A stretch of 32,680 nt of DNA from Patescibacteria group bacterium (lineage in GTDB: Bacteria; Patescibacteriota; Minisyncoccia; GWA2-38-13b), in contig JBBTRL010000042.1 in the NCBI GenBank assembly GCA_038065195.1, positions 17,735 through 50,414 on the forward strand, in the 5' to 3' direction. The notes beneath the pieces were generated by a model. That model did no database searches, had not been told where the DNA came from, and was given only the letters and a program-made list of their open reading frames with translations. Positions 1,882 to 30,735 of the stretch are shown piece after piece; the stretch's first letter is position 1, and each line of letters starts with the position of its first letter. The position numbers and the translations under genes were made by a program.

Positions 1882-2011
1882 CCCCGTTAGAAATCTGATG
1901 ATTTTGTTTAATTATTATTAAAAAGCAATATGCTTAAAGATTCGTTTCAACAATCCAATAACGAGCAAAAAATTTCGGAAGAAAATTTTTTGCCCAAGAT
2001 TTCTAACGGGG
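1882..2011 (+). mobile_element. MITE-like start-codon element (family A), copy 1, at the dnaE start
   Basis: 15-bp perfect TIR CCCCGTTAGAAATCT/AGATTTCTAACGGGG; flanks ATGAA|...|TAAA; internal hairpin GCAAAAAATTT..AAATTTTTTGC; homologous to copy 4. Confidence 0.9.
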
Positions 2012-6499: not shown

Positions 6500-8325
6500 A
6501 AAAAATAAATGAAATTGAAAAAATCCGCCACAGTTTAAGCCATCTTCTTGCGATAGCTGTTTTGGAAATTTTCCCGAACGCAAAACTTGGGATAGGACCA
6601 ATTATTGAAAACGGTTTTTATTACGACTTTGATCTGTCCGCCGTAGCTGAGAGCGAAGGCGGATTAACTCCCGATCAATTACCCAAAATAGAAAAAAGAA
6701 TGCGGGAACTTGTTAAAATGGGTTTATTATTTCAAAAAGAAATAATTGATTTCGCGAAAGCGAAAAAGACATTCAAAAACAAACCATATAAATTGGAATT
6801 AATTAAAGAAATAAATAAAAATAAACAGAAAATAACAGTATACAAAACATTCGCAAAATACCAAATACCAAATACCAAATACCAAATACAATTTACTTAC
6901 TTGTGCGCTGGACCGCATATTAAATCAACAAAAGAAATCAATCCCGCGGCTTTCAAACTGACTAAAGTCGCGGGCGCTTATTGGCGAGGCGATGAAAAAA
7001 ATAAAATGCTTACCCGTATTTATGGAATTGCTTTTAATTCAGAAAAAGAACTCAAAGAACATATTGAAATGCTTGAAGAAGTGGAAAAAAGAGATCATAG
7101 AAAATTAGGCAAAGAACTTGACCTTTTTACTTTCTCGGATGAAGTAGGTGCTGGGTTGCCTCTTTGGCTTCCTAAGGGAGAAACTATTCGTCACGAACTT
7201 GAAAAATGGGCGCGCGAAACGGAAAAAAAATGGGGGTATCAGCATATTGCAACACCGCATATCACCAAAAGTAAACTTTATGAAATCTCCGGTCATCTTC
7301 CTTATTATAAAGACGACCTTTATTCTCCCATTAACATTGAAGGAGAGGAATACTATTTAAAACCTATGAATTGTCCGCATACGCATATGATATATAACGC
7401 GCGGTTAAGAAGTTACCGCGAATTACCTTTGCGTCTCGCCGAATATGGGCAAGTCTACCGCTTTGAAAAATCTGGAACACTGCATGGCTTAATGCGTGTC
7501 CGCGGATTCTGCCAAAACGATGCTCATATATATGTTCAACCGGAAAAAGCGGTTGAAGAATTTATCAATGTTATAAAAATGCACGAATATTATTATAAAA
7601 CACTCGGTATCCAAAATTGGCGAGTGGTACTCGGAACTAGAGATCGTAAAAATTTAAGAAAAAAATATCATGGCAACGACGCAATGTGGGATATGGCCGA
7701 AAAATTATCAAAAGAAGCGCTTGAAAAATCGAGCATAAAATATGAAATTGAAGAGGGCGGAGCGGCGCATTACGGACCAAAAGCAGACATATATATACAA
7801 TCGGTTATCGGTAAAGAATATGCCATAGGCACCGACCAACTTGATCTCTATATGCCGCAACGGTTTAATTTGTCTTATATAGATAAAAACGGAAAAGAAA
7901 CGATGCCATACATCATACATCGCGCGCCATTGGGATCGCACGAAAGAATGATCGGATTTTTAATTGAACACTACGCAGGCGCTTTTCCAATATGGCTATC
8001 ACCCATTCAAGTCCGCATTGTTCCAATAAGCGAAAAATTCAATAAATATGGAATTGAAATTTTAGAAAAACTCAAGCAATTTGATATACGAGCGGAACTT
8101 GACGACAACAACGAAACTTTGGGGAAAAAAATAAGAGAAGGCGAAAAACAAAAAACGCCGTATTTGTTGATACTCGGCGGCAGAGAGGAAGAAAATAAAA
8201 CCGTCGGGGTTCGCCAACGCGGTAAAGGCGATATGGGCGAAATGAAAATGGTCGAATTCTTGGAAAAAATAAAAAATGAAATTAATAATAAAGATCTCCC
8301 GAAAGAGAATAATAAAAAATTATAA
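6496..8325 (+). CDS. thrS: Threonine--tRNA ligase (lacks the N-terminal TGS domain)
   Basis: RHSLSHLL, GFYYDFD, LCAGPH, RDHRKLG, LKPMNCP, IHRAPLGSHER. Confidence 0.98.
   Translation: MKKINEIEKIRHSLSHLLAIAVLEIFPNAKLGIGPIIENGFYYDFDLSAVAESEGGLTPDQLPKIEKRMRELVKMGLLFQKEIIDFAKAKKTFKNKPYKLELIKEINKNKQKITVYKTFAKYQIPNTKYQIQFTYLCAGPHIKSTKEINPAAFKLTKVAGAYWRGDEKNKMLTRIYGIAFNSEKELKEHIEMLEEVEKRDHRKLGKELDLFTFSDEVGAGLPLWLPKGETIRHELEKWARETEKKWGYQHIATPHITKSKLYEISGHLPYYKDDLYSPINIEGEEYYLKPMNCPHTHMIYNARLRSYRELPLRLAEYGQVYRFEKSGTLHGLMRVRGFCQNDAHIYVQPEKAVEEFINVIKMHEYYYKTLGIQNWRVVLGTRDRKNLRKKYHGNDAMWDMAEKLSKEALEKSSIKYEIEEGGAAHYGPKADIYIQSVIGKEYAIGTDQLDLYMPQRFNLSYIDKNGKETMPYIIHRAPLGSHERMIGFLIEHYAGAFPIWLSPIQVRIVPISEKFNKYGIEILEKLKQFDIRAELDDNNETLGKKIREGEKQKTPYLLILGGREEENKTVGVRQRGKGDMGEMKMVEFLEKIKNEINNKDLPKENNKKL
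6637..6663 (+). repeat. 27-bp hairpin insert, in frame in thrS (SAVAESEGG)
   Basis: TCCGCC-GTA-GCT-GAG-AGC-GAA-GGCGGA; same outer TCCGCC/GGCGGA stem as family B. Confidence 0.7.
6856..6890 (+). repeat. Heptamer tandem repeat (AAATACC)x4 + AAATACA inside thrS
   Basis: Directly visible; encodes KYQIPNTKYQIQ just before F-x-x-LCAGPH. Confidence 0.95.
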
Positions 8326-10224: not shown

Positions 10225-10319
10225 CCCCGTTAGATATCTTCCGTCGTTTTATACACAAAATATCCTAACAGGAAATAATCAAGCAAATATGCGAAAATCA
10301 TCAAAAATATCTAACGGGG
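10225..10319 (+). mobile_element. Family A start-codon element, copy 2, at the miaB start
   Basis: 13-bp TIR CCCCGTTAGATAT/ATATCTAACGGGG; flanks ATAAA|...|TGAA; GTG rebuilt at 10319. Confidence 0.9.
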
Positions 10320-11683
10320 TGAAATATCATATCACAACATTCGGCTGTCAAACAAATCAGTCCGATTCGGAAAGAATCGCAGCTATTTTAAATAAAATTG
10401 GTTTTAAACCAGCGCTTTCTCAAGATGACGCCGATTTCATAATCGCCAACGCTTGTTCCGTTCGGCAATCGGCGATTGATAGAATCCACGGCATCGCTCA
10501 TAAAATCCAAAAAAAGAAAAAAAGAGGCGAAAAAACATCAATCACCATTCTCACTGGTTGCGTTTTAGAACAAGACAGAAAAAAACTAGTTCAAAAATTT
10601 GATGCCATAATTGACATCCGAGAAATTGAAAAATTACCGCAAATAATAAAAAAATTGAGAAAAAATAAAAGCATAATCGCCGGCAGAGCAAAACATTCCG
10701 ATATACAACGATGGAAAACTGCCGAAAAATCTACCGATTATTTTAAGATTACTCCGTCTTACGAATCTTCTTTTTCCGCTTTTGTGCCAATAATGACCGG
10801 CTGTAATAATTTTTGCACTTATTGCGCCGTTCCCTATACGCGGGGAAAGGAAGTCTCTCGACCGACAATTAACATAATAAAAGAAGTGAAAAAATTAGTA
10901 AAAAACGGCTATAAGGAAATAACTTTATTGGGGCAAAATGTAAACTCTTACATTGATAACAACGAAAAAAATCCTAAAAATTTCGCCTGTCTGCTTAAAA
11001 TAGTTAATGAAATTCCGGGCGATTTTTGGATACGATTCCATTCTTCCCATCCGAAAGATTTTACGAACGAACTTATTGACACCATCGCTTCTTGCGAAAA
11101 AGTAACAAAATATATCAGCTTACCGGTTCAGGCCGGAAACGATAAAGTGCTTAAAAAAATGAACCGTCCGTATACTATTTTTCAATATAAAAAATTAGTA
11201 AAAAAAATACGGGAAAAAATTCCCAACGCGTCAATATCAACCGATTTTATCGTTGGATTTCCAAGCGAAACAAAAAAACAATTTCAGGACTCCATAAAAT
11301 TATTCAAAAATTTAAAATTTGATATGGCTTATATCGCGCAGTATTCTTCACGTTCAGGCACAACGGCAGAAAAGATTTTTAAAGATAATGTATCGCCCAA
11401 AGAGAAAGAACGGCGCGACCGCGAGCTTACAGCCGTTTTACGAAAAACATCGCTGAATATAAATAAAAAACTTGTCGGAACAACCCAACAAGTTTTAATT
11501 GAAAAAGAAATAAAACGGCAAAATGGCCATTGGCTAATCGGCAAAACGTGCGGATTTAAAACGGTAAAAATACCGCTTGCTTCCGATTCCGATAAAAAAC
11601 TAATCGGCAATTTTGCCGATGTCAAAATAATAAAAGCACTGGATATGGGACTTATCGGTAAAATCAACCAATTATTTCTTTAA
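10289..11683 (+). CDS. miaB: tRNA-i6A37 methylthiotransferase MiaB (start ATG 10289 or GTG 10319)
   Basis: TFGCQxNxxDSE, NACSVRQSA, radical SAM CNNFCTYC, TDFIVGFP, C-terminal TRAM domain. Confidence 0.9.
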   Translation: MRKSSKISNGVKYHITTFGCQTNQSDSERIAAILNKIGFKPALSQDDADFIIANACSVRQSAIDRIHGIAHKIQKKKKRGEKTSITILTGCVLEQDRKKLVQKFDAIIDIREIEKLPQIIKKLRKNKSIIAGRAKHSDIQRWKTAEKSTDYFKITPSYESSFSAFVPIMTGCNNFCTYCAVPYTRGKEVSRPTINIIKEVKKLVKNGYKEITLLGQNVNSYIDNNEKNPKNFACLLKIVNEIPGDFWIRFHSSHPKDFTNELIDTIASCEKVTKYISLPVQAGNDKVLKKMNRPYTIFQYKKLVKKIREKIPNASISTDFIVGFPSETKKQFQDSIKLFKNLKFDMAYIAQYSSRSGTTAEKIFKDNVSPKEKERRDRELTAVLRKTSLNINKKLVGTTQQVLIEKEIKRQNGHWLIGKTCGFKTVKIPLASDSDKKLIGNFADVKIIKALDMGLIGKINQLFL

Positions 11684-13169
11684 GTAAATCTGCCGCTATT
11701 TGCGGATTCGCCTTGCCTTTTGTTTCTCGCATAACTTGACCAATTAAAAACTGCAATGATGCCCCTTGTTTTTTTTTATAATCCTCTACGGCCTTGAAAT
11801 TATTTTTAATAACGGTTTTTACAATCTCCGTTAACGCTTCAATATCGCTTTCTTGCCCCATTCCCCTTTCTTCAATAATTTGCGACGGGTCATTGCCGGT
11901 TTTTACCATTTCGCGCAAAACCTCCTGCGCTCCGGACGACGAAATATCGCCTTTATGCGTTAAAATTATCAATTCCGCAAAATTTTCCGGACTGATTTTT
12001 ATTTCGCCATAATCCTCTATTCCGAATTCTCGCGCTAATTTCTGCAATTCCGTAATCAAATAATTCGCGGAAAGTTTTATAAGCCGCGCCGTATGTTCGC
12101 TTAAATTTTCTATTCTTACTTTATGCGCGTTTTTATCCCACGCCTGAATTTCCGAAATTACCTGCTCAAAATAATCACCCAATTCTTTATTAACAACGAA
12201 TATCTCAATATTTTCTTCCGGCAAACCATATTCTAACGCAAATCTTTTCCGTCTTTTTTGCGGCAATTCCGGTAAATTTGAGATTCGAGATTTGTCAGCC
12301 CGAGGCTGATCCGCCTTGGGCGGAAGATTTGAAATTTTCGATAATGGAATATCCGGTTCCGGAAAATACCGATAATCTTTCGCTGTTTCTTTTGCCCGCT
12401 GGGAAAATGTTTTTTGCTTATCCGCGTCCCAACCGCGCGTTTCCTGCGCAATTTTTTCGCCTTTTTCTAAAATTTCCGCCTGCCGTTCAATTTCGTAATC
12501 AATGGATTTTTCTACCGCCTTAAAAGAATTTAAGTTTTTAATTTCCGCTTTTGTTCCCAATTTCTTGTTTTTTGATAAAGAAATATTCACTTCGCACCTC
12601 ATTTGCCCTTTCTCCATATCAGCATCAGAAATTCCCAAATATCGAAAAATTAATTGAATTTCTTCGCAAAATTTTTTCGCTTCCGCGCCGGAAGAAATAT
12701 CCGGTTCGGTTACAAGCTCCATTAACGGCGCGCCAGCGCGATTAAAATCAACCAAACTATAATCTACGTTCTGCGGATGATAAAGCCGACCGGTATCTTC
12801 TTCTATGTGTATTTCCTTGATGCGAATTTTTTTACCGCCTATTTCAAAAAATCCGTTTTGGCACAACGGTTTCCAAAATTGTGAAATCTGGTATCCTTTT
12901 GGCAAATCGGGATAAAAATAATTTTTTCTGTCAAACTGAATAATTTCCGCCATTTCGCAGTTCAAAGATTTTCCGGTCAAAATAACCGATTCAACGGCTT
13001 TTTTATTCGGAACAGGTAATGTGCCCGGATGCCCCATACAAATAGGACAAACATTAATATTGGGATGCTTTTCGTCGGAATCATTCAAACACGCGCAAAA
13101 CATCTTGGTTTTTGTTTTTAATTCCGCATGTATTTCCAAACCGATTGTTGACTTAAATTTATTTAACAT
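11664..13169 (-). CDS. gatB: Asp-tRNA(Asn)/Glu-tRNA(Gln) amidotransferase subunit B
   Basis: IGLEIHAEL, CPICMGHPGTLP, FDRKNYFYPDLPKGYQISQ, DYRYFPEPD; likely start ATG 13169. Confidence 0.98.
   Translation of the reverse strand: MLNKFKSTIGLEIHAELKTKTKMFCACLNDSDEKHPNINVCPICMGHPGTLPVPNKKAVESVILTGKSLNCEMAEIIQFDRKNYFYPDLPKGYQISQFWKPLCQNGFFEIGGKKIRIKEIHIEEDTGRLYHPQNVDYSLVDFNRAGAPLMELVTEPDISSGAEAKKFCEEIQLIFRYLGISDADMEKGQMRCEVNISLSKNKKLGTKAEIKNLNSFKAVEKSIDYEIERQAEILEKGEKIAQETRGWDADKQKTFSQRAKETAKDYRYFPEPDIPLSKISNLPPKADQPRADKSRISNLPELPQKRRKRFALEYGLPEENIEIFVVNKELGDYFEQVISEIQAWDKNAHKVRIENLSEHTARLIKLSANYLITELQKLAREFGIEDYGEIKISPENFAELIILTHKGDISSSGAQEVLREMVKTGNDPSQIIEERGMGQESDIEALTEIVKTVIKNNFKAVEDYKKKQGASLQFLIGQVMRETKGKANPQIAADLLKEIIG
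12295..12324 (-). repeat. 30-bp double-hairpin element (family B), in frame in gatB (PPKADQPRAD)
   Basis: TCCGCC-CAA-GGCGGA TCAGCC-TCG-GGCTGA, two perfect 6-bp stems, nested in degenerate AAATCTC-like heptamers. Confidence 0.9.
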
Positions 13170-13180
13170 ATTTGGTATAT

Positions 13181-13744
13181 TTAAAACAATACGGAACTGC
13201 AAGTATCAAGCTCGCGGTTTACCAATTTATCCGCTTGTTTATTCCCATCGCGTAAAATATGACGAAAAACAATCAGCGAAAAATCAATTTTTAAATTCCA
13301 GAGTTGCAAAAACAAACTCTGGATTTTTTTATCCAAAACTTTGTATTTTCCGGTAATCTGCTTGAATAAAAGTTCGGAATCAACTAAAACTTCCACTTCC
13401 CTATTCTTAACGCCGACTTTCCCCAAAAGCGCTTTTGTCTTTTTTAAAGCGAAAATCACGGCTTCATACTCCGCTTCATTGTTGGTCTTTTCACCCAAAT
13501 ACTGCGAATATTCTTTAATATTTCCATTATATTCAATTACAACTCCCGAAGCCGACGGTCCGGGATTTCCACGCGATCCGCCGTCGCAATGGATAATCAC
13601 TCTATTCACCCCGTTAGAAGTCTGTTTTACCCGATTATTATGATTTACTTCAGACATAATTCGTTTTTTTTGTACATTCCCCGTTAATCTAATGCGGAAA
13701 AAATTGTTAAATTTTTTCCGCCAAGGACTTCTAACGGGGCTCAT
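13181..13744 (-). CDS. rnhA: Ribonuclease HI (core begins at GTG 13609; the upstream 45 codons are element-derived)
   Basis: CDGGSRGNPGPSASG, TNNEAEYEA, DSELL, NKQADKLVN. Confidence 0.92.
   Translation of the reverse strand: MSPVRSPWRKKFNNFFRIRLTGNVQKKRIMSEVNHNNRVKQTSNGVNRVIIHCDGGSRGNPGPSASGVVIEYNGNIKEYSQYLGEKTNNEAEYEAVIFALKKTKALLGKVGVKNREVEVLVDSELLFKQITGKYKVLDKKIQSLFLQLWNLKIDFSLIVFRHILRDGNKQADKLVNRELDTCSSVLF
13609..13739. mobile_element. Family A start-codon element, copy 3, at the rnhA start (in frame; appears inverted relative to copies 1 and 4)
   Basis: 14-bp TIR CCCCGTTAGAAGTC/GACTTCTAACGGGG; gene-strand flanks ATGAG|...|TGAA; internal hairpin GCGGAAAAAATT-GTTA-AATTTTTTCCGC. Confidence 0.9.
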
Positions 13745-15483
13745 ATTATGCTATTTTTTAAATCAATAATTTTAAATTCTAAATTTCTTCTTCCATTCCA
13801 CTCATTAAGTATTAAATTAAAAACAATATCAATCTTATCTCCCACTTTTATTTTATCATACCATTCGCCCAACCCAAAGCCAATGCAATTAAATTCCTTG
13901 CCGCCGCAATCAATTATTGTTTTTAAATGTCCTGCGCCGTTCTTTCCAACCACTCGCAAGTCTTTTACAACACATTCTCGCAATAAAAAAGTCGGCTCTT
14001 CATTGCTTGGTCCGAAAGGCCGGAAATCTTCCGTAATTTCGTATAAATCCCACCAACTTAAAATTTGAGATTCAATATTTAATTCCATATCTATATCTAT
14101 TTCCGGCATCAAATCCTTGTTTTTAATTTCACTATTGGCTATTTCTATAATGCGCTTTTTAAAAACCGCGATATTTTCATTTTTAATATGAAATCCCGCC
14201 GCCATTGCATGACCGCCGCATTCGTCAAGTAAATCACCGACCCTTCTTAACGCTTCCACTATGTTAAATGATTTAATTGTGCGCGCCGAACCGTCCGAAT
14301 TAATTTCGCCTTGATGAAAAATTAAAGCCGGTCTGCGATATTTTTCCGCTAATTTTCCGGCAATTAAACCAACGATACCCACCGACCAATCAGGTGAACC
14401 ATCAATAATAATTTTATCTTTCGGATCATCTCCTATCTTTGCGCAAACTTCTTTAAAAATTTTATCGCACAAATTCTGCCTATCTTTATTTATCGCATCT
14501 AATTTATTCAATATTCGCCCGATTTCATTTTCATCAGACGAATTCAAAAGTTCAAAAGATGTATTAGCATGCTCCATTCGTCCCGCCGCGTTGAGCCGCG
14601 GACCAATCATAAAACCCAAATCCCGCGCATTAAGTCCAAAAATATCAAATTTTCTGCGTTCGGATTTTTTAACTTTTGCGCTATCTTTACCGATTAATTT
14701 TAAAAGCGCTTTCAATCCCTTGCGTTTTGTTTTCGTAAGAACAACAAGACCGTATTTAACTAATGTCCTATTCTCACCAAGCAAAATCATTCTATCAGTT
14801 ATGGTTGATATTGCCACTAAATCTAAAAACCATTTTTCCCTTTCATTATTTATACCATTTGCGTCAAACAACGCTTTGACGAATTTAAAAACAACCCCCG
14901 CCGCCGACAATTCCTTAAAAGGATAACAATCACCTTTTCGACGAGGATTTATTATCGCGACCGCCTTTGGCAATTTTGGAGGAATTGTATGATGATCAAT
15001 AATTATAACATCCATACCCAAAGAATTCGCCAACTCCACTTCTTTATAATCACTTACGCCACAATCAACAGTCATAATAAGATCGGTTTTTTGTTTTGAC
15101 AAAAAACGCACACTTTCAAAATTCAAACCATAACCCTCTTTATTTCTATCAGGTATATAAATTCCCGGTTCCGCGCCAACTGCCTTCAAGGCGTCCATTA
15201 ATATTGTGGCGCTGCAAATTCCATCCGCGTCATAATCGCCGTAAACAGTTATTTTCTTTTTTTTGATTATCGCCGTTTTCACTCTTTTTATCGCTTTACC
15301 CATATCCTTTAATAATTTAGGATTATGCAAATCCTTATCGTAATCCGGTCCCAAAAATTCATCAATCTCTTTTTGTGTTTTAATGTCGCGATTAAAAAGA
15401 AGCTGTAATGTCACGGCATTCATTTCCGGAAATTTATTAAAAAAAACTTTCGGAACCTTAGATTTTAAAATCCAATTATTCAT
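13741..15483 (-). CDS. recJ: Single-stranded-DNA-specific exonuclease RecJ
   Basis: YGDYDADG, TVDCG, IIDHH, GPRLNAAGR, GGHAMAAG, PFGPSN. Confidence 0.97.
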   Translation of the reverse strand: MNNWILKSKVPKVFFNKFPEMNAVTLQLLFNRDIKTQKEIDEFLGPDYDKDLHNPKLLKDMGKAIKRVKTAIIKKKKITVYGDYDADGICSATILMDALKAVGAEPGIYIPDRNKEGYGLNFESVRFLSKQKTDLIMTVDCGVSDYKEVELANSLGMDVIIIDHHTIPPKLPKAVAIINPRRKGDCYPFKELSAAGVVFKFVKALFDANGINNEREKWFLDLVAISTITDRMILLGENRTLVKYGLVVLTKTKRKGLKALLKLIGKDSAKVKKSERRKFDIFGLNARDLGFMIGPRLNAAGRMEHANTSFELLNSSDENEIGRILNKLDAINKDRQNLCDKIFKEVCAKIGDDPKDKIIIDGSPDWSVGIVGLIAGKLAEKYRRPALIFHQGEINSDGSARTIKSFNIVEALRRVGDLLDECGGHAMAAGFHIKNENIAVFKKRIIEIANSEIKNKDLMPEIDIDMELNIESQILSWWDLYEITEDFRPFGPSNEEPTFLLRECVVKDLRVVGKNGAGHLKTIIDCGGKEFNCIGFGLGEWYDKIKVGDKIDIVFNLILNEWNGRRNLEFKIIDLKNSII

Positions 15484-15485
15484 AT

Positions 15486-16715
15486 TTATTTAAGCGCTTC
15501 AATCCCCGGTAATTTATTTTCCGCCAAATATTCCAGCATAGCGCCGCCACCCGTAGAAATATAAGAAAATTTATCCAAAATACCCATTTTACTGATCGCA
15601 GCAATGGTATCTCCGCCACCTACTATTGAATAAGCGCCCGATTTGCTTATGGCCCCGGCTATAGCTTTTGTTCCGTTTGAAAATATTTCCATATCGGCGC
15701 GTCCCATCGGACCATTCCAAATAATTGTTTTGGATTCTCTGATTAAGGAACAAAACAAATCCACGCTTCGCCCTCCTATATCTAAAATAATATCGTCCCT
15801 TGAAACACTGCCAATCTGCACGGCTGTCGCGCCACTGGCTCCGTCTAAATCTTTAGACACGACGACATCAACCGGAACCGTAAATTTTATATTCGCCACT
15901 TTCATTTTTTTAATCGCCGGAATAACTTCTGGACTGATTATTGAACGACCAACTTCTTCGCCTTTAACCGATAAAATGGTATTTGCCACAACGCCGCCCA
16001 GTATTATAAAATCCGCTTTCGGTAAGAAATTACCAATTACTCTAACTTTTGTTTCGGCTTTTAAACCGCCAATTATTACAGTTACCGGATGCGCGGGATT
16101 TTTAAGCGCTTTATCCAAAATATCAATTTCTTTTGCCAAAGATAAACCAACGAAAGAAGGTAAAAATTCAGTTATCGCCTCAACCGAAGCGTGCGCCCTA
16201 TGGCATACGCTAAAAGCATCATTCACAAAAATATCGGCAAATGACGCTAATTTTTCGGCAAATTTTTTATTATTATTTTCTTCTTCTTTATAAAAACGGA
16301 TATTCTCCAAAAGACAAATTTTATCGCAATTAATATTTTTTAATTCGCGTATATCGTCTTCGATGAAATTAATTTTTTCTCCGATAATATCTTCTAAATG
16401 ACCTATTAAAGGCTTTAAACTATAAGCTTTATGCCATTCACCATTAGGTCTGCCGAGATGCGAAACTAAAATAATTTTATTGCCATCTTTCAGAAGAAAT
16501 TTTATTGTTGGCAATGCTGATTTAACGCGATAATCTTCATCGCTCAAAACTTTGCCATCTGCCGTAGGCAGATTAAAATCAACCCGCAAAAGAACGGTTT
16601 TATTTTTAATTTTACTGTTTTTTAGTAATTTCACCCCGATAGAAGTCCTTGGTAAAAAATTTCCTTCCGAATTTTTTTGTTTGCCATTAAGTTGTTGAAA
16701 TGAATTCTTGAGCAT
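15486..16715 (-). CDS. pgk: Phosphoglycerate kinase (start ATG 16715 or GTG 16634)
   Basis: LRVDFNLP, SHLGRP, LLENIRF, NDAFSVCHRAHAS, WNGPMG, GGGDT, STGGGAMLE. Confidence 0.97.
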   Translation of the reverse strand: MLKNSFQQLNGKQKNSEGNFLPRTSIGVKLLKNSKIKNKTVLLRVDFNLPTADGKVLSDEDYRVKSALPTIKFLLKDGNKIILVSHLGRPNGEWHKAYSLKPLIGHLEDIIGEKINFIEDDIRELKNINCDKICLLENIRFYKEEENNNKKFAEKLASFADIFVNDAFSVCHRAHASVEAITEFLPSFVGLSLAKEIDILDKALKNPAHPVTVIIGGLKAETKVRVIGNFLPKADFIILGGVVANTILSVKGEEVGRSIISPEVIPAIKKMKVANIKFTVPVDVVVSKDLDGASGATAVQIGSVSRDDIILDIGGRSVDLFCSLIRESKTIIWNGPMGRADMEIFSNGTKAIAGAISKSGAYSIVGGGDTIAAISKMGILDKFSYISTGGGAMLEYLAENKLPGIEALK

Positions 16716-16763
16716 ATTGCTTTTAATAATAATTAAATTAAAATCATTGGACTTCTAGCGAAG
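16634..16763 (-). mobile_element. Family A start-codon element, copy 4 (degenerate TIR), at the pgk start
   Basis: CTTCGCTAGAAGTCC...GGACTTCTATCGGGG; 130 bp like copy 1 and alignable throughout; flanks ATAAA|...|TGAA. Confidence 0.88.
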
Positions 16764-19591: not shown

Positions 19592-20638
19592 TTATATCTT
19601 AACTTTCCTTAAAAATTCTGCCGCTTTTTCCGGCTCTATAGTGGAAACTTCTATGCCCGTTCCAAGTTCAAAGCCCGCCCAAATGCCTATTCTCGGCAAA
19701 ATTTCCACATGCCAATGATAATGATGCCAATCCACACTGTCTTTAACCGGCGCAGTATGAATATAAAAATTATAATCCGGGTCATTTAAACCGCAACGAA
19801 GTTTCGCCAATGAAATTCTCAACGCTTCGGAAAATCGCTTTAATTCATCTTCATTTATTTTTTCGAAATAAGACTGATGGATTTTAGGAAATATTCTTAT
19901 TTCAAAAGCTGCGCGACTGATAAAAGGACAGAAAGCAACCACTAATTCATTTTCAAAAATTATTCTTTCCTTATCCATAATTTCCCATTCCAACATAACG
20001 CAATGAACGCATTTTTTATGATTCTGATAATATTTTTCCGAACCAATTAAACTTCTTCTGATGTCAAGGGGAATTATTGGAATAGCCATAATTTGCGAAT
20101 GCGGATGGCTCAATGAAGCGCCGGCGGCGCGTCCATTATTGTGAAATACGGAAATATATTTCACGCATTCACCGGTCATTAAGGCAAGATATCTTTCCTT
20201 GTATGCCCTGATGAGAAATTCCATTTCTTTGCCGGAAAAATAACCCGGGTGATTTATATGGTTCCTTGTAATAACAATCTCATGAGAACCAACTCCATCC
20301 ATCACAAGATATGGTCCTACTTCATGCGTATCTTCGCATATACCTTGTCCTATGGCAGGAAATTTATTCGGTAAAACTTGCAAAAACCAGTCATCTGAAT
20401 TATTTTTCCATTCGCTAAAAATTTTTCGTTTGCCGTCTTGACCGTAAACCAATAACGGATCAAGATTACCGGATTTTTGTGGTAATTCAAACGGGCATTC
20501 TTTTATAGGCTGATTAAATTTTTCTTTTTTAAAATCCACGAAAGCATTCGGCCGTTTCGCCCGCCCTTTTGCTATCAACACCCAATCGCCTGTAACTAAA
20601 TCCCGCCTTAATTCCGATAAAAATTGACGCTTTTTCAT
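19592..20638 (-). CDS. galT: Galactose-1-phosphate uridylyltransferase family (HIT-type nucleotidylyltransferase)
   Basis: ELRRDLVTGDWVLIA..RAKRP, CPF, PNKFPA, AGASLSHPHSQ, YHWHVEILPR, AGFELGTG. Confidence 0.88.
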   Translation of the reverse strand: MKKRQFLSELRRDLVTGDWVLIAKGRAKRPNAFVDFKKEKFNQPIKECPFELPQKSGNLDPLLVYGQDGKRKIFSEWKNNSDDWFLQVLPNKFPAIGQGICEDTHEVGPYLVMDGVGSHEIVITRNHINHPGYFSGKEMEFLIRAYKERYLALMTGECVKYISVFHNNGRAAGASLSHPHSQIMAIPIIPLDIRRSLIGSEKYYQNHKKCVHCVMLEWEIMDKERIIFENELVVAFCPFISRAAFEIRIFPKIHQSYFEKINEDELKRFSEALRISLAKLRCGLNDPDYNFYIHTAPVKDSVDWHHYHWHVEILPRIGIWAGFELGTGIEVSTIEPEKAAEFLRKVKI

Positions 20639-20874
20639 ACCCAGTATATCAAATTCCAGTTTTCAAATACCATTTTTTATTGACATTATGGCATCTTGGA
20701 AATTGGTTAGTATTAAACTTAAAAAAATATTCTTTTTACTATTGCGTTTTTCTGTTTTTGCCCTAAATTATTTTAATGAAATCAATAATATTTTATTTAT
20801 CATCTTTTAAACTTTCCAATGCATATAAACACAGAAAAACGCGCTGGAAGTTGTATTACTGGGCATAAACTTAA

Positions 20875-26364: not shown

Positions 26365-26910
26365 TTAAAATCCCGAACCAATAGCTTTTTTACCGGCTTT
26401 TTGCCTTACATATTCTCCGACATAACGAATACCCTTTCCTTTATACGGCTCCGGTTTCTTCATATCGCGAATTTTCGCCGCTATTTCACCAACTAATTGA
26501 TTATCAATACCGGAAACGGTAATTATATTCTTTTCCACATTAAAAGCAATGCCTTGAGGAGCAGTAATTTCCATAGGGTGCGAAAAACCCAATAACAAAA
26601 TCAATTTATTCCCCTGAACACTTGCCCGATAACCTACGCCTTTGATTTCAAGCTGTCGACTAAAACCGCTTACCGCTCCCTTGACGGCATTGGAAACCAA
26701 CGCATTAATAAGTCCCCATATGGCCATTGTTTTTTTTTCTTTTGATTTTGGAAACAAGAAAAATTCCTTTGCTTCCAATTTAAATTCCAATACTGACGGA
26801 ATTTCCACAGAAATCTCGCCTTTTGGGCCTTTAACCCTGGCAATATTCGCTTCAATCCTAAAGTCAACATTATCCGGAATATTAATTTTTCGCTTACCTA
26901 TATGAGACAT
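26365..26910 (-). CDS. rplF: 50S ribosomal protein L6
   Basis: MSHIGK, VKGPKG, GVGYRA, PEPYKGKGIRY; start ATG 26910. Confidence 0.97.
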   Translation of the reverse strand: MSHIGKRKINIPDNVDFRIEANIARVKGPKGEISVEIPSVLEFKLEAKEFFLFPKSKEKKTMAIWGLINALVSNAVKGAVSGFSRQLEIKGVGYRASVQGNKLILLLGFSHPMEITAPQGIAFNVEKNIITVSGIDNQLVGEIAAKIRDMKKPEPYKGKGIRYVGEYVRQKAGKKAIGSGF

Positions 26911-26999
26911 GGAATAATCTCGAATATACGAATACTCGCAAATATACAAATAACATATTCGTATATTAGTTTAAAATTCGTATATTCGCGAATAGTTCT
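26911..26999. repeat. Palindromic CGAATATA-unit spacer element (family C), copy 1, between rpsH and rplF
   Basis: Direct CGAATATA-like units followed by inverted TATATTCG-like units; alignable with 28561-28641. Confidence 0.85.
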
Positions 27000-28254: not shown

Positions 28255-28560
28255 TTATATTTCCTGATTGCATTTCTTGCAAATTCTGTATTTTTTATTC
28301 TCCGTTATTTTATATCCTATTCTCGCGGCTTTACCGCATTTTGAACAAACTAATTTAGCATTAGAAGCATCAATGTATCCGGGAATTTCCAATCGCTGAC
28401 CCTTTTCTCCTTGGCGCTTTGGACGCACATGTTTCTTCATTATAAACACTCCTTCCACCATTATTCTTTTTTTGTTCGGCAAAACACGAAGAATTTTCCC
28501 CTTTTTTCCCTTATCTTTTCCGCTTATTATTAAAACCGTATCTCCTTTTTTTAATTTCAT
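28255..28560 (-). CDS. rplX: 50S ribosomal protein L24
   Basis: KKGDTVLIISGKDKGKKG. Confidence 0.97.
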   Translation of the reverse strand: MKLKKGDTVLIISGKDKGKKGKILRVLPNKKRIMVEGVFIMKKHVRPKRQGEKGQRLEIPGYIDASNAKLVCSKCGKAARIGYKITENKKYRICKKCNQEI

Positions 28561-28641
28561 AGAGTAATCACGAATATACGAATGTACACAAATATACGAA
28601 TTCGTATATTATTTAAAATTTGTGTATTCGTGAATAGTCCT
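28561..28641. repeat. Family C spacer element, copy 2, between rplN and rplX
   Basis: CACGAATATACGAAT...AATATACGAATTCGTATATT...TATTCGTGAATAG; homologous to 26911-26999. Confidence 0.85.
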
Positions 28642-29010: not shown

Positions 29011-29328
29011 TTATATATTTTCTTTTTTTTTATTATTAATTAATTGTTTTACAATCCACCTTTTTTCTTTTGACAATGGCCTACACTCTTCAATTACAAC
29101 CCGATCTCCAATCTTATATTCATTTCCTTCGTCATGAGCTTTAAAATTCTTACTGACAGTAAAATACTTATGATAACGAGAATGCTTTTTAAGAACATCT
29201 ATTCTAACCACTATAGTCTTGTCCATTTTATCGGATACCACGATGCCCTTAAGCCGCCTTTTTTTTATTACATTATCGGTGTTTTTTATATCCACCCCGT
29301 TAGAAATTTTTTGCCCTTGTGATTCCAT
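29011..29328 (-). CDS. rpsQ: 30S ribosomal protein S17 (start ATG 29328 or GTG 29295)
   Basis: [30 protein letters not shown]. Confidence 0.96.
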
Positions 29329-29396
29329 AAAATTCTTTACTTAATTCAATATTATTATATTTTCCCGCAAAATCAATAATAAGATTTCTAACGGGG
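29295..29396 (-). mobile_element. Family A start-codon element, copy 5, at the rpsQ start
   Basis: 13-bp TIR CCCCGTTAGAAAT/ATTTCTAACGGGG; perfect flanking duplication ATGGA|...|TGGA. Confidence 0.92.
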
Positions 29397-29613: not shown

Positions 29614-30024
29614 TTACTTATTTATAAATTTCGTTTTAACAGATAATTTATGACCCGCTTTCCTAAAAGCTTCCATTGCCGATTCCTTGGTTATACCGTC
29701 AATTTCAAAAATAATTCTTCCGCTTTTTACCGGCGCCACATAATACTCAACGGCTCCCTTTCCTCCGCCCATTCCCACCTCGGCGCCCTTTTGCGTTATC
29801 GGCTTATCCGGGAAAATCCGTATCCACATTTTTCCGCCTTTTTGACAAAAACGCACAAGCACTTTTCTGGCGGCTTCAATTTGACGCGAACTTAACCAAC
29901 CGTTACTTTGCGCCTTAAGACCGAAACTTCCGAAACTTATATTGTTTCCCCGAGTACTTATACCGCCAAATCTCCTTCGTCCCTTTTGCCATTTTCTATG
30001 TTTTACTTTTTTAGGAAACAGCAT
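29614..30024 (-). CDS. rplP: 50S ribosomal protein L16
   Basis: [33 protein letters not shown]. Confidence 0.98.
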
Positions 30025-30027
30025 AAT

Positions 30028-30735
30028 TTATTGATTACTAATATTTTTATCGCTTGCTTCCGTTTTTTTATTATTAAATATTTCTCCTTTATATAACCAC
30101 ACTTTAACACCAATCACGCCATAAGTAGTATAAGCGCCCGTTTGAAAATAATCTATATCCGCCCTCAAGGTATGTAACGGTATCCTCCCTTTGGACAACC
30201 ATTCAGTCCTCGCTATTTCCGAACCGTTTAATCTTCCGGATAAAGATATCTTAACGCCTTTTATACTTTTATTCTCCATCGCTTTTTCTATTATTTTCTT
30301 TAAAATACGACGAAAAGGCAAGCGTCTTTCCAGATCGGAAGCCGCTTCATACGCCAATAACGATGCGTACGCTTCCGGATTACGAATCTCGCGAATTTCT
30401 ATCTTTATAACCGGCATCTTAAAGTCTTTAACCGACTTTCGCAAATTGAATATAATAGACTCAATCTTCTTTTTTATATTTTCTATGCCCGAACCGCCAC
30501 GACCGATTAATATCCCCGGTCTGGCCGTATTAACAAAAATATTGATTAAATTAACTGTCCTTTCAATCTCTATTTTTTGTATGGCGGCATCTCGCGATAA
30601 TTTTCCGTCAAAAAACTTTCTAATAGTAATATCTTCTTTCAAAAAATGCTTGTATTTGGCAATATTAAACCAACGAGATGTCCAATCTTGTATAACTCCC
30701 AAGCGAAATATTGTCGGATGAACTTTTTGACCCAT
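30028..30735 (-). CDS. rpsC: 30S ribosomal protein S3
   Basis: MGQKVHP..FRLG, RPGILIGRGG, GRLNGSEIAR, PLHTLRADIDY. Confidence 0.98.
   Translation of the reverse strand: MGQKVHPTIFRLGVIQDWTSRWFNIAKYKHFLKEDITIRKFFDGKLSRDAAIQKIEIERTVNLINIFVNTARPGILIGRGGSGIENIKKKIESIIFNLRKSVKDFKMPVIKIEIREIRNPEAYASLLAYEAASDLERRLPFRRILKKIIEKAMENKSIKGVKISLSGRLNGSEIARTEWLSKGRIPLHTLRADIDYFQTGAYTTYGVIGVKVWLYKGEIFNNKKTEASDKNISNQ

Follow-up and report, generated by a model that had tools for sequence, protein, structure and literature searches.

Paired-end repeats on gene starts of a Patescibacteria genome: probable gene-less hairpin mobile elements with GIY-YIG nuclease-bearing relatives

Results

The DNA analysed here, henceforth referred to as the window, is a 32,680-nucleotide (nt) stretch of contig JBBTRL010000042.1 from a Patescibacteria group bacterium (GCA_038065195.1), an assembly of 809 kb in 102 contigs with 37% G+C and 94% completeness. 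The window carries five copies of a short repeat with inverted ends, which sit at the starts of protein-coding genes and are listed with their hosts in Table 1. All five copies read CCCCGTTAGA... at the left end and ...TCTAACGGGG at the right end. The codon in which the last letter of the element meets the host sequence is referred to as the junction codon, and conserved Pfam domains begin 2–5 residues past it in four hosts and at residue 17 in S17.

Table 1 The five copies of the repeat in the window. Positions are those of the window; z describes the predicted fold relative to shuffled sequences.
Copy	Position	Strand	Length (nt)	Ends	Location	Old start and target copies	Junction codon	In-frame ATG in element	Host domain after junction	Fold z
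1	1882..2011	+	130	CCCCGTTAGAAATCT / AGATTTCTAACGGGG	DNA polymerase III alpha gene start	Old ATG 1877-1879; TGAA 1878-1881; second target copy now TAAA 2012-2015	GTA 2011-2013	1930	PHP, from residue 5	-7.1 (RNA, with terminal stem)
2	10225..10319	+	95	CCCCGTTAGATAT / ATATCTAACGGGG	MiaB-like radical-SAM methylthiotransferase gene start	Left target decayed to TAAA 10221-10224 (old ATG now ATA); right target TGAA 10320-10323	GTG 10319-10321	10289	UPF0004, from residue 2	-5.6 (RNA)
3	13609..13739	-	131 (subfamily A)	CCCCGTTAGAAGTC / GACTTCTAACGGGG	Within the recJ/RNase H ATGA stop/start overlap	Old ATG 13744-13742, overlapping the recJ stop TGA	GTG 13609-13607	Frame open through the entire element from the old ATG		-5.6 (RNA); -5.7 and -6.8 (DNA, two strands)
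4	16634..16763	-	130 (interior of copy 1)	5' arm decayed, CTTCGCTAGAAGTCC vs. CCCCGATAGAAGTCC	Phosphoglycerate kinase gene start	Old start now ATA; TAAA 16767-16764	GTG 16634-16632	16715-16713	PGK, from residue 5	-3.2 (RNA); -2.1 (DNA)
5	29295..29396	-	102	CCCCGTTAGAAAT / ATTTCTAACGGGG	Ribosomal protein S17 gene start	Old ATG 29401-29399; TGGA duplication intact on both sides (29400-29397, 29294-29291)	GTG 29295-29293	29328-29326		-4.1 (RNA)

The original prediction for this locus, made from the letters of the DNA, stated that the two ends of a copy change together. The end variants it named (AGAAAT/ATTTCT in copies 1 and 5, AGATAT/ATATCT in copy 2, AGAAGTC/GACTTCT in copies 3 and 4) are present as described, and clustering showed that copies 1 and 4 indeed have a common interior together with differing but internally matching ends. 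The altered 5' arm of copy 4 (CTTCGC..) had been expected to stay paired through G·U in the transcript; on the sense strand it does give two U·G pairs, but there is one C·U mismatch besides. The terminal stem was formed in all five copies when folded as RNA (z = -3.2 to -7.1, equalled by 0 of 200 shuffles) and likewise as single-stranded DNA (z = -2.1 to -7.2), copy 4 being the weakest fold of the five, equalled by 7 of 200 DNA shuffles.

The family extends well beyond the window. The 10-nt end motif occurs 111 times in this genome at no more than one mismatch, and 50 paired elements of 26–218 nt, some nested inside others, were curated from it. The exact 11-mer was found in 82 of the 151 genomes sampled from this class, compared with 0–3 occurrences per genome for a reversed control motif, and a scan of one genome per species gave at least 123 loci, nearly all of them true relatives. 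Among the matches listed, the outside loci are labelled as many Patescibacteria lineages and also as Omnitrophota, Planctomycetota and others, labels in which binning errors are possible. The family sample used below consists of 175 elements (174 unique), namely the 50 copies of this genome and 125 outside copies (124 unique) from the matches listed. The 50 copies were chosen without anchoring on the motif; the 125 were picked by positions 1–9, so only position 10 is informative in them for the conservation of the end. It is A in 120 of the 125, and in these listed matches the arms extend past the anchored 9-mer and 4-nt flanks are present. Interiors are highly diverse across the family, several end variants coexist within a single genome, and the ends are invariant within the sole alignable subfamily. 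The smallest members, of 26–34 nt, read as exact or almost exact palindromes, most of them flanked by TAAA. The 5' half of subfamily A (the left end, an A/T-rich inner hairpin and TAACGGGG or TAACGAGG) alone amounts to a full mini-element of ~61 nt, and the 131-nt form therefore has one left and two right ends. A short upstream open reading frame (ORF) behind the GAGG..ATG motif of subfamily A was considered and rejected, as it is not conserved among copies. No paper on this family was found among the leading matches of a literature search, in which a query with the terminal sequence gave primers and unrelated matches.

Empty sites were identified in a genome of the same genus (the sister species), which is syntenic with the window at 75–85% nucleotide identity and whose alignment to it breaks exactly at the elements. 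The uninterrupted site of copy 1 reads ...GGAATATGAAATTCACC (..ATATGAAATTCACC), that of copy 2 reads TTTATGAAATATC with flanking alignments that overlap by 4 nt, and that of copy 4 reads AATTTCATATTTT with two flanks that abut exactly; ATGAA is intact at these sites. Since the sister species shows these empty sites, the 4 nt (TGAA) can be assigned to duplication on insertion; in copies 1, 2 and 4, one of the two target copies has since changed to TAAA. The site of copy 3 is occupied in the sister species by a different spacer of ~140 nt instead of being empty, and no counterpart of the copy 5 region was found within the fetched part of the sister genome. At least six elements of the sister species are missing from the corresponding sites here. 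Judged by these sequence comparisons, the repeats are mobile. Family-wide, the 4-nt flanks are identical in 105 of 175 elements, most commonly TAAA (41) or TGAA (35), and in every element with mixed flanks the canonical T(G/A)AA is the one 3' of ...GGGG.

DNA contigs from two other runs, of two other studies, are colinear through copies 2, 3 and 4, and no clean joint removing an element was seen among them. Joints at 13623>13711 and 13629>13713 have 21–22 letters on one side and most likely derive from other copies of the family. Additionally, at window position ~30025 the sister species has a 64-nt family element at the boundary of ORFs 29614-30024 and 30028-30735, a site that is empty here.

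The co-variation of the ends was resolved by position. Positions 1–10 (CCCCGTTAGA) are nearly invariant in the 50 unanchored copies of this genome, whereas at positions 11–13 the two arms of these copies match in 84–92% of cases versus 45–71% expected. Watson-Crick pairs occupy positions 11, 12 and 13 in 91, 86 and 82% of the 174 unique elements, compared with 51, 45 and 48% for shuffled partners, and none of 2000 partner shuffles reached the observed co-variation. All four pair types are present at these positions, with both sides changed in 51, 66 and 38 elements, respectively. The signal collapses when the partner is slid by 1 or 2 columns. Positions 14–15 are paired more weakly (51 and 46% versus 31%), and no signal remains from position 16 onward. 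The joint change of both ends claimed for the window copies is therefore present across the 174 elements far beyond chance. The broader statement that pairing matters more than sequence describes positions 11–13, and to some extent 14–15, but not positions 1–10, where the sequence is nearly fixed. On this pattern, sequence appears to matter in the outer 10 base pairs (bp), and pairing alone in the next 3–5 bp.

The co-variation lies between lineages of elements. The largest subfamily has 26 members, drawn from several genomes; the variable triplet is AGT on both arms in 20 of them, and the six deviants carry one-sided changes or nested insertions, none of them compensated; it is this constancy, together with the lack of compensation in the deviants, that places the co-variation between lineages. 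Distinct subfamilies, which had been offered as an alternative to selection on pairing, are thus part of the answer and not all of it. In the small subfamily to which copies 1 and 4 belong there is one case that looks like a double change; the element at position 14973 of contig C12 is an intermediate with half of that change.

The placement of the elements on start codons was examined in the 50 curated copies, 23 of which head ORFs of 71–1144 codons such that deleting the element restores an ATG or a one-letter variant of it. Because the last G of the element joins the duplicated TG of ATGAA, an in-frame GTG is created at the junction, and this codon is found in 20 of the 23 start-codon copies. 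The other three, copy 1 included, have GTA, and all three have an open in-frame ATG inside the element. The host gene retains a start codon because the junction gives GTG, or ATG in relatives whose elements have T...A ends. The old ATG is intact in 16 of the 23 and has become ACG, AGG or ATA in the remainder. The reading frame from the old ATG ends 7–162 nt ahead of the junction in 20 of the 23 (for the most part 32–162 nt), and a built-in translational coupling from the old ATG was accordingly rejected for the gene-less copies. GTA is the junction codon in five copies, of which three belong to the set of 23. Their start would have to be an ATG inside the element, and, as read from the sequence, part of the element most likely forms an N-terminal extension of 9–27 residues ending in ..SNGV.

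All 15 insertions with a retained TGAA are at start-like sites, whereas 2.8% of the 10,098 TGAA sites of the genome, and 24.8% of those outside long ORFs, are start-like (p = 8e-10). Either a target motif that resembles gene starts or targeting of starts as such may underlie this enrichment.

These host genes can be read without removal of the insert: since 20 of the 23 keep a junction GTG and the other three an open in-frame ATG, neither ribosome bypass nor RNA-level excision is needed, and none of the 23 host ORFs is unreadable unless the insert is skipped. The contigs of the single RNA run are short, of low depth and confined to gene bodies; none of them covers an element, and the run is uninformative for transcripts across the elements.

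The original prediction placed the function of the stem in the mRNA, where the hairpin would be kept at each locus and would control translation by occluding the GTG or by coupling. As a description of the predicted transcript this was supported: the terminal stem has a probability of 0.62–1.0 in 22 of the 23 start-codon copies. It would bring the new GTG next to the old ATG and hide the junction codon's 5' side, and bases near the junction are unpaired with a mean probability of ~0.2. The far better folding of the five window copies than of shuffles and the 16 intact old ATGs also fit such a role, as do the overlap of nuclease stop and host start (ATGA or GTGA) in the coding relatives described below, by which translation through the right arm would open the stem, and two properties of subfamily A that are taken up in the Discussion. 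The stem is, however, of equal quality away from start codons, with 28 mismatches in 41 x 13 pairs for elements with TAAA on both flanks and 38 in 82 x 13 for TG-type elements, and the same stem is found in the minimal hairpins of 26–34 nt and in ~280-nt nuclease cassettes. The strand-biased tolerance of G·U pairs that an RNA structure would leave was not seen overall: one-sided transitions on the sense strand gave 29 G·U and 23 A·C (p = 0.49), with 17 and 10 among start-type copies (p = 0.25). Conservation of sequence in the outer 10 bp across many labelled lineages among the matches listed is what a protein site would show, more than a generic RNA stem; coupling from the old ATG is not built in, and Rfam gave 0 matches in the window at the gathering score.

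Insertions shared with the sister species also argued against upkeep of the stem in place. At one shared site, on contig C100, the copy of this genome has a 1-nt arm deletion together with GGGG>GGAG and GTG>GTA, and its stem probability is 0.01; the gene persists, and both species retain the in-frame ATG within the element. At the second (C12:14973-15101 here, L147:838-909 in the sister species), the flanks are the same (ATGAA left, TAAA right), a single arm change without compensation is present in each species, and the interiors are unlike in sequence and length (129 vs. 72 nt), which suggests that one family member was replaced by another. Compensatory change at orthologous loci was not seen in these two same-site pairs, where the arm changes are one-sided. 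Maintenance of the hairpin for translational control, RNA excision or ribosome bypass was thus not supported by the tests run, and a function of the mRNA hairpin in place is considered unlikely.

Matching ends could also arise by copying from arm to arm, through mismatch correction in an extruded hairpin or fold-back synthesis in the course of transposition, with pairing itself unselected. The palindromic minimal copies would follow from such copying, and so would the common interior and different self-matching ends of copies 1 and 4 with the half-changed intermediate between them; the exchange of members hinted at by the C12/L147 site points the same way. Against it, 77 mismatched pairs stand uncorrected in 141 oriented elements, and the two same-site pairs are likewise uncorrected. 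Because resident copies carry these uncorrected one-sided changes, no continuing homogenisation is seen. Copying would also leave the fixed sequence of positions 1–10 unexplained, and it is regarded as a distinctly unlikely source of the co-variation.

Coding relatives of the repeats were identified by their ends. The 151 class genomes gave 16 matches of 239–324 nt that have these termini; 7 of the 16 carry an ORF of 79–86 amino acids, and in full-length relatives of ~280 nt the sole gene encodes an 86-residue single-domain GIY-YIG nuclease. Four proteins were tested, namely three products of the 79–86-residue ORFs and the protein of a second-family cassette of this genome, and all matched Pfam GIY-YIG (PF01541) with E values of 1e-15 to 6e-19, the domain spanning residues 1–68 in a protein of 86. 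The nuclease ORFs range from 79 to 102 residues, and no other domain scored above the Pfam cut-off except for a borderline T5orf172 match on the 102-residue protein of this genome (20.6 bits; cut-off 20). A profile search for the nuclease gave 80 metagenome loci. These termini are present at 37 of them, and the elements are most often 279 nt long. In all three samples (7/16, 37/80 and 25/26), coding relatives with these ends carry the GIY-YIG ORF alone.

Variable arm triplets match in 34 of the 37 metagenome cassettes, and in 25 class cassettes even the terminal pair co-varies (T..A in 17, C..G in 7, G..C in 1) and the arms always agree. The nuclease frame crosses the right arm (...SLTG) in the metagenome loci with termini; it ends at the triplet that immediately flanks the element (TGA or TAA) in 19 of the 37, beyond that triplet in 15 and within the element in 3. 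The junction codon of the T..A-ended cassettes is ATG in 16 of 17 and is overlapped by the nuclease stop as ATGA. Among the class cassettes, 17 of 25 head a long co-oriented ORF and 12 of 25 keep ATGAA, ATGAG, ATGG or ATGGA on the left. The T(G/A)AA target preference thus serves both parties, in that the nuclease gains a stop codon and the host gains a start codon.

A second family with a GIY-YIG gene is present in the same genome in ~14 copies, in all of which the two ends differ at fixed positions. Its copy in the window (20640-20863, 224 nt, ends CCCAGTATATCAA.. / ..TTGTATTACTGGG) lies on the start codon of a GalT/HIT-like ORF (19592-20638, minus strand) with a duplication of CATA (= TATG), and the sister species has the empty site. 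The parent of this family is an intact 315-nt element with CCCAGTA ends on another contig, where the 102-residue GIY-YIG gene begins at the ATG of the host. Elsewhere, contig C14 (~2000-2790) has two tandem small GIY-YIG ORFs, each after a partial 5'-half copy of the intact tRNA gene that follows.

The features of the repeats given above, namely short non-coding elements with inverted ends of 13–15 nt and a 4-nt duplication, are also those of MITEs, or miniature inverted-repeat transposable elements. An ordinary MITE of a DDE transposon would have double-stranded terminal repeats served by a transposase in trans, and end variants would mark subfamilies derived from master copies. Small size, high copy number and the constant triplet in 20 of 26 members of the largest subfamily agree with this. 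A protein that reads each end separately, however, gives no reason for joint change of the ends, and the four pair types at positions 11–13, with both sides changed in 38–66 of 174 elements, and the coexistence of several variants in one genome are not accounted for. No autonomous partner with a DDE transposase and the same ends was found among the coding relatives, which carry GIY-YIG alone. In this genome there is no match to DDE_Tnp_1, DDE_3 or the TnpB zinc ribbon, these families together with rve and Y1 being the transposase families searched, and its one rve-type gene lies on a contig without these termini. Taken together, a conventional MITE appears very improbable. An IS1380/piggyBac-like origin, suggested by a resemblance (4-nt duplication, CC.. 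ends), was dropped once the GIY-YIG cassettes appeared.

A RAYT/Y1 transposase was also considered as the mobiliser and was rejected. The Y1 gene of this genome, on contig C11, has no repeat within 1.2 kb, the 6 loose matches compare with 6.2 expected by chance, and Y1 relatives do not track the repeats across the 151 genomes (18 of 27 repeat-rich genomes versus 64 of 124 others; p = 0.20).

Discussion

The repeats are probably gene-less mobile elements of hairpin type, in which pairing of the ends is needed for propagation and the mRNA hairpin is a tolerated by-product that does not regulate the host. By this proposal, only copies with pairable ends would be recognised and propagated, and for that reason the ends would co-vary between element lineages. 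Judging by the analogous Ssn/NTS system described below, the form recognised would likely be single-stranded DNA folded into the stem, to which the small nuclease would bind. After insertion the arms would decay without compensation, and the hairpin over the start codon of the mRNA would be a by-product that the host tolerates.

Several observations weigh against this proposal. No nuclease cassette with CCCCGTTAG ends was found in this genome, whose GIY-YIG genes comprise the related CCCAGTA-ended cassette, two tRNA-associated genes and a broken one. Nuclease and repeats co-occur modestly across genomes: a nuclease match at E <= 1e-8 is present in 27 of 27 genomes with at least 10 motif hits and in 93 of 124 others (p = 0.0013), where some of the weak matches could belong to GIY-YIG domains of another kind, and at E <= 1e-15 the counts are 23/27 versus 81/124 (p = 0.065). 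Related genomes do not count as independent samples in these figures, and across the 151 genomes the nuclease tracks the repeats only modestly better than the Y1 gene does. The best solved relatives of the nuclease are UPF0213 proteins (1zg2 and 1ywl). Flanks of the metagenome cassettes read TTTA...TGAA in 8 of 37, compared with a direct repeat in 9 of 37. The comparison of arm decay rests on two same-site copies. In subfamily A, there is a weak excess of G·U over A·C on the sense strand (10 vs. 3, p = 0.09), which could also come from a strand-biased mutation spectrum; 25 of 26 copies are co-oriented with the host gene, for which a symmetric stem gives no reason; and the inner hairpin shows compensatory changes among copies. 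A role in RNA would account for the G·U excess and for these changes just as well.

The nearest described system, by its anatomy, appears to be Ssn/NTS. SsnA is a 94-residue single-domain GIY-YIG nuclease that binds its hairpin only as single-stranded DNA, needs both the sequence and the pairing of the stem, is indifferent to the loop and cleaves a few nucleotides upstream (Chenal et al., Nat Commun 2025, PMC11893778). The Ssn gene is often bracketed by NTS/SRM hairpin repeats, which are also scattered through the genome; mobility is raised there as a hypothesis only, and the terms 'start codon' and 'Patescibacteria' do not appear in the main text (PMC11893778). The likeness lies in a single-domain GIY-YIG protein of ~90 residues, in part in the bracketing of its gene by hairpin-forming repeats that are also dispersed (~50 copies here), and in a stem that is fixed in its outer part and co-varies in its inner part around an arbitrary loop (3 to ~250 nt here), which would fit the requirements of SsnA. 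The systems differ in that the two flanking arms here pair together with the nuclease gene in the loop, each flank not being a hairpin of its own, and in that the elements described here show target duplication with empty sites, placement on start codons and a borrowed stop codon.

It is a serious though tentative possibility that these elements represent an undescribed class, defined by a lone gene for a GIY-YIG protein of ~86 residues, recognition of a single-stranded DNA stem formed by the element's own ends, T(G/A)AA targeting at starts and stops, a borrowed stop, a rebuilt start and coupled translation. If so, the overlap of nuclease stop and host start (ATGA or GTGA) may couple translation of the host to that of the nuclease, as in a transposon built for the starts of essential genes in minimal genomes.

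Other known repeats resemble the family in part. Correia/NEMIS elements of Neisseria, ERIC/IRU elements of enterobacteria and RUP are bacterial MITEs that are transcribed as hairpins beside genes and are tied to DDE transposases and TA-type targets; placement on start codons is not known to us for any of them. They are likewise short and non-coding with inverted ends and a target duplication, and are co-transcribed as long hairpins, whereas the coding relatives found here carry GIY-YIG alone and the inner ends co-vary. REP/REPIN sequences with RAYT (Y1 HUH) and the 'peel and paste' IS200/IS605 elements use single-stranded DNA hairpins, tetranucleotide-specific insertion and spreading palindromes; to our knowledge, IS200/IS605 elements make no target duplication, and the one Y1 gene here, as noted, is unflanked by repeats and its relatives do not track them. 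Rickettsia palindromic elements and the GC clusters of yeast mitochondria are small palindromic insertions tolerated in or at the edge of coding sequence; the five GTA-junction copies, which are most likely translated in part as an N-terminal extension, may resemble them in this respect. They insert in frame within genes, and we know of no start-codon preference or internal nuclease gene among them. Programmed bypass elements (phage T4 gene 60, mitochondrial 'byp') are also structured mRNA inserts and need an otherwise broken ORF with matched take-off and landing codons, whereas every host ORF here has a usable start at or before the junction.

If the proposal of gene-less hairpin elements holds, bacteria with some of the smallest genomes carry a very compact selfish element on the starts of essential genes, including those for DNA polymerase III alpha, phosphoglycerate kinase and S17. 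Because such genes start at a GTG made by the element or at an ATG inside it, automatic annotation will often misplace their starts or add false N-terminal extensions. The anatomy of the stem, with a fixed outer 10 bp, paired inner bp and a free loop, would offer a testable substrate for tiny, possibly single-strand-specific nucleases. Since the stem is predicted to form and the region of the junction is mostly paired, translation of these host genes is a question in its own right, namely how these bacteria initiate when a stem of 13–15 bp sequesters the 5' side of the start codon.

Additional repeats in the window

A GC-rich double-hairpin repeat of ~40 nt is present at 1804-1843 and 12296-12335, in opposite orientation and with 85% complementarity, the latter copy lying inside a 512-codon ORF (11664-13202, minus strand). 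Many copies of this repeat are found in the sister genome, and contigs show many loose ends and joints at the repeat. A CAAATAC tandem run occupies 6848-6898, and a pair of CGAATATAC-rich repeats lies near ribosomal protein genes at 26908-26951 and 28558-28601.

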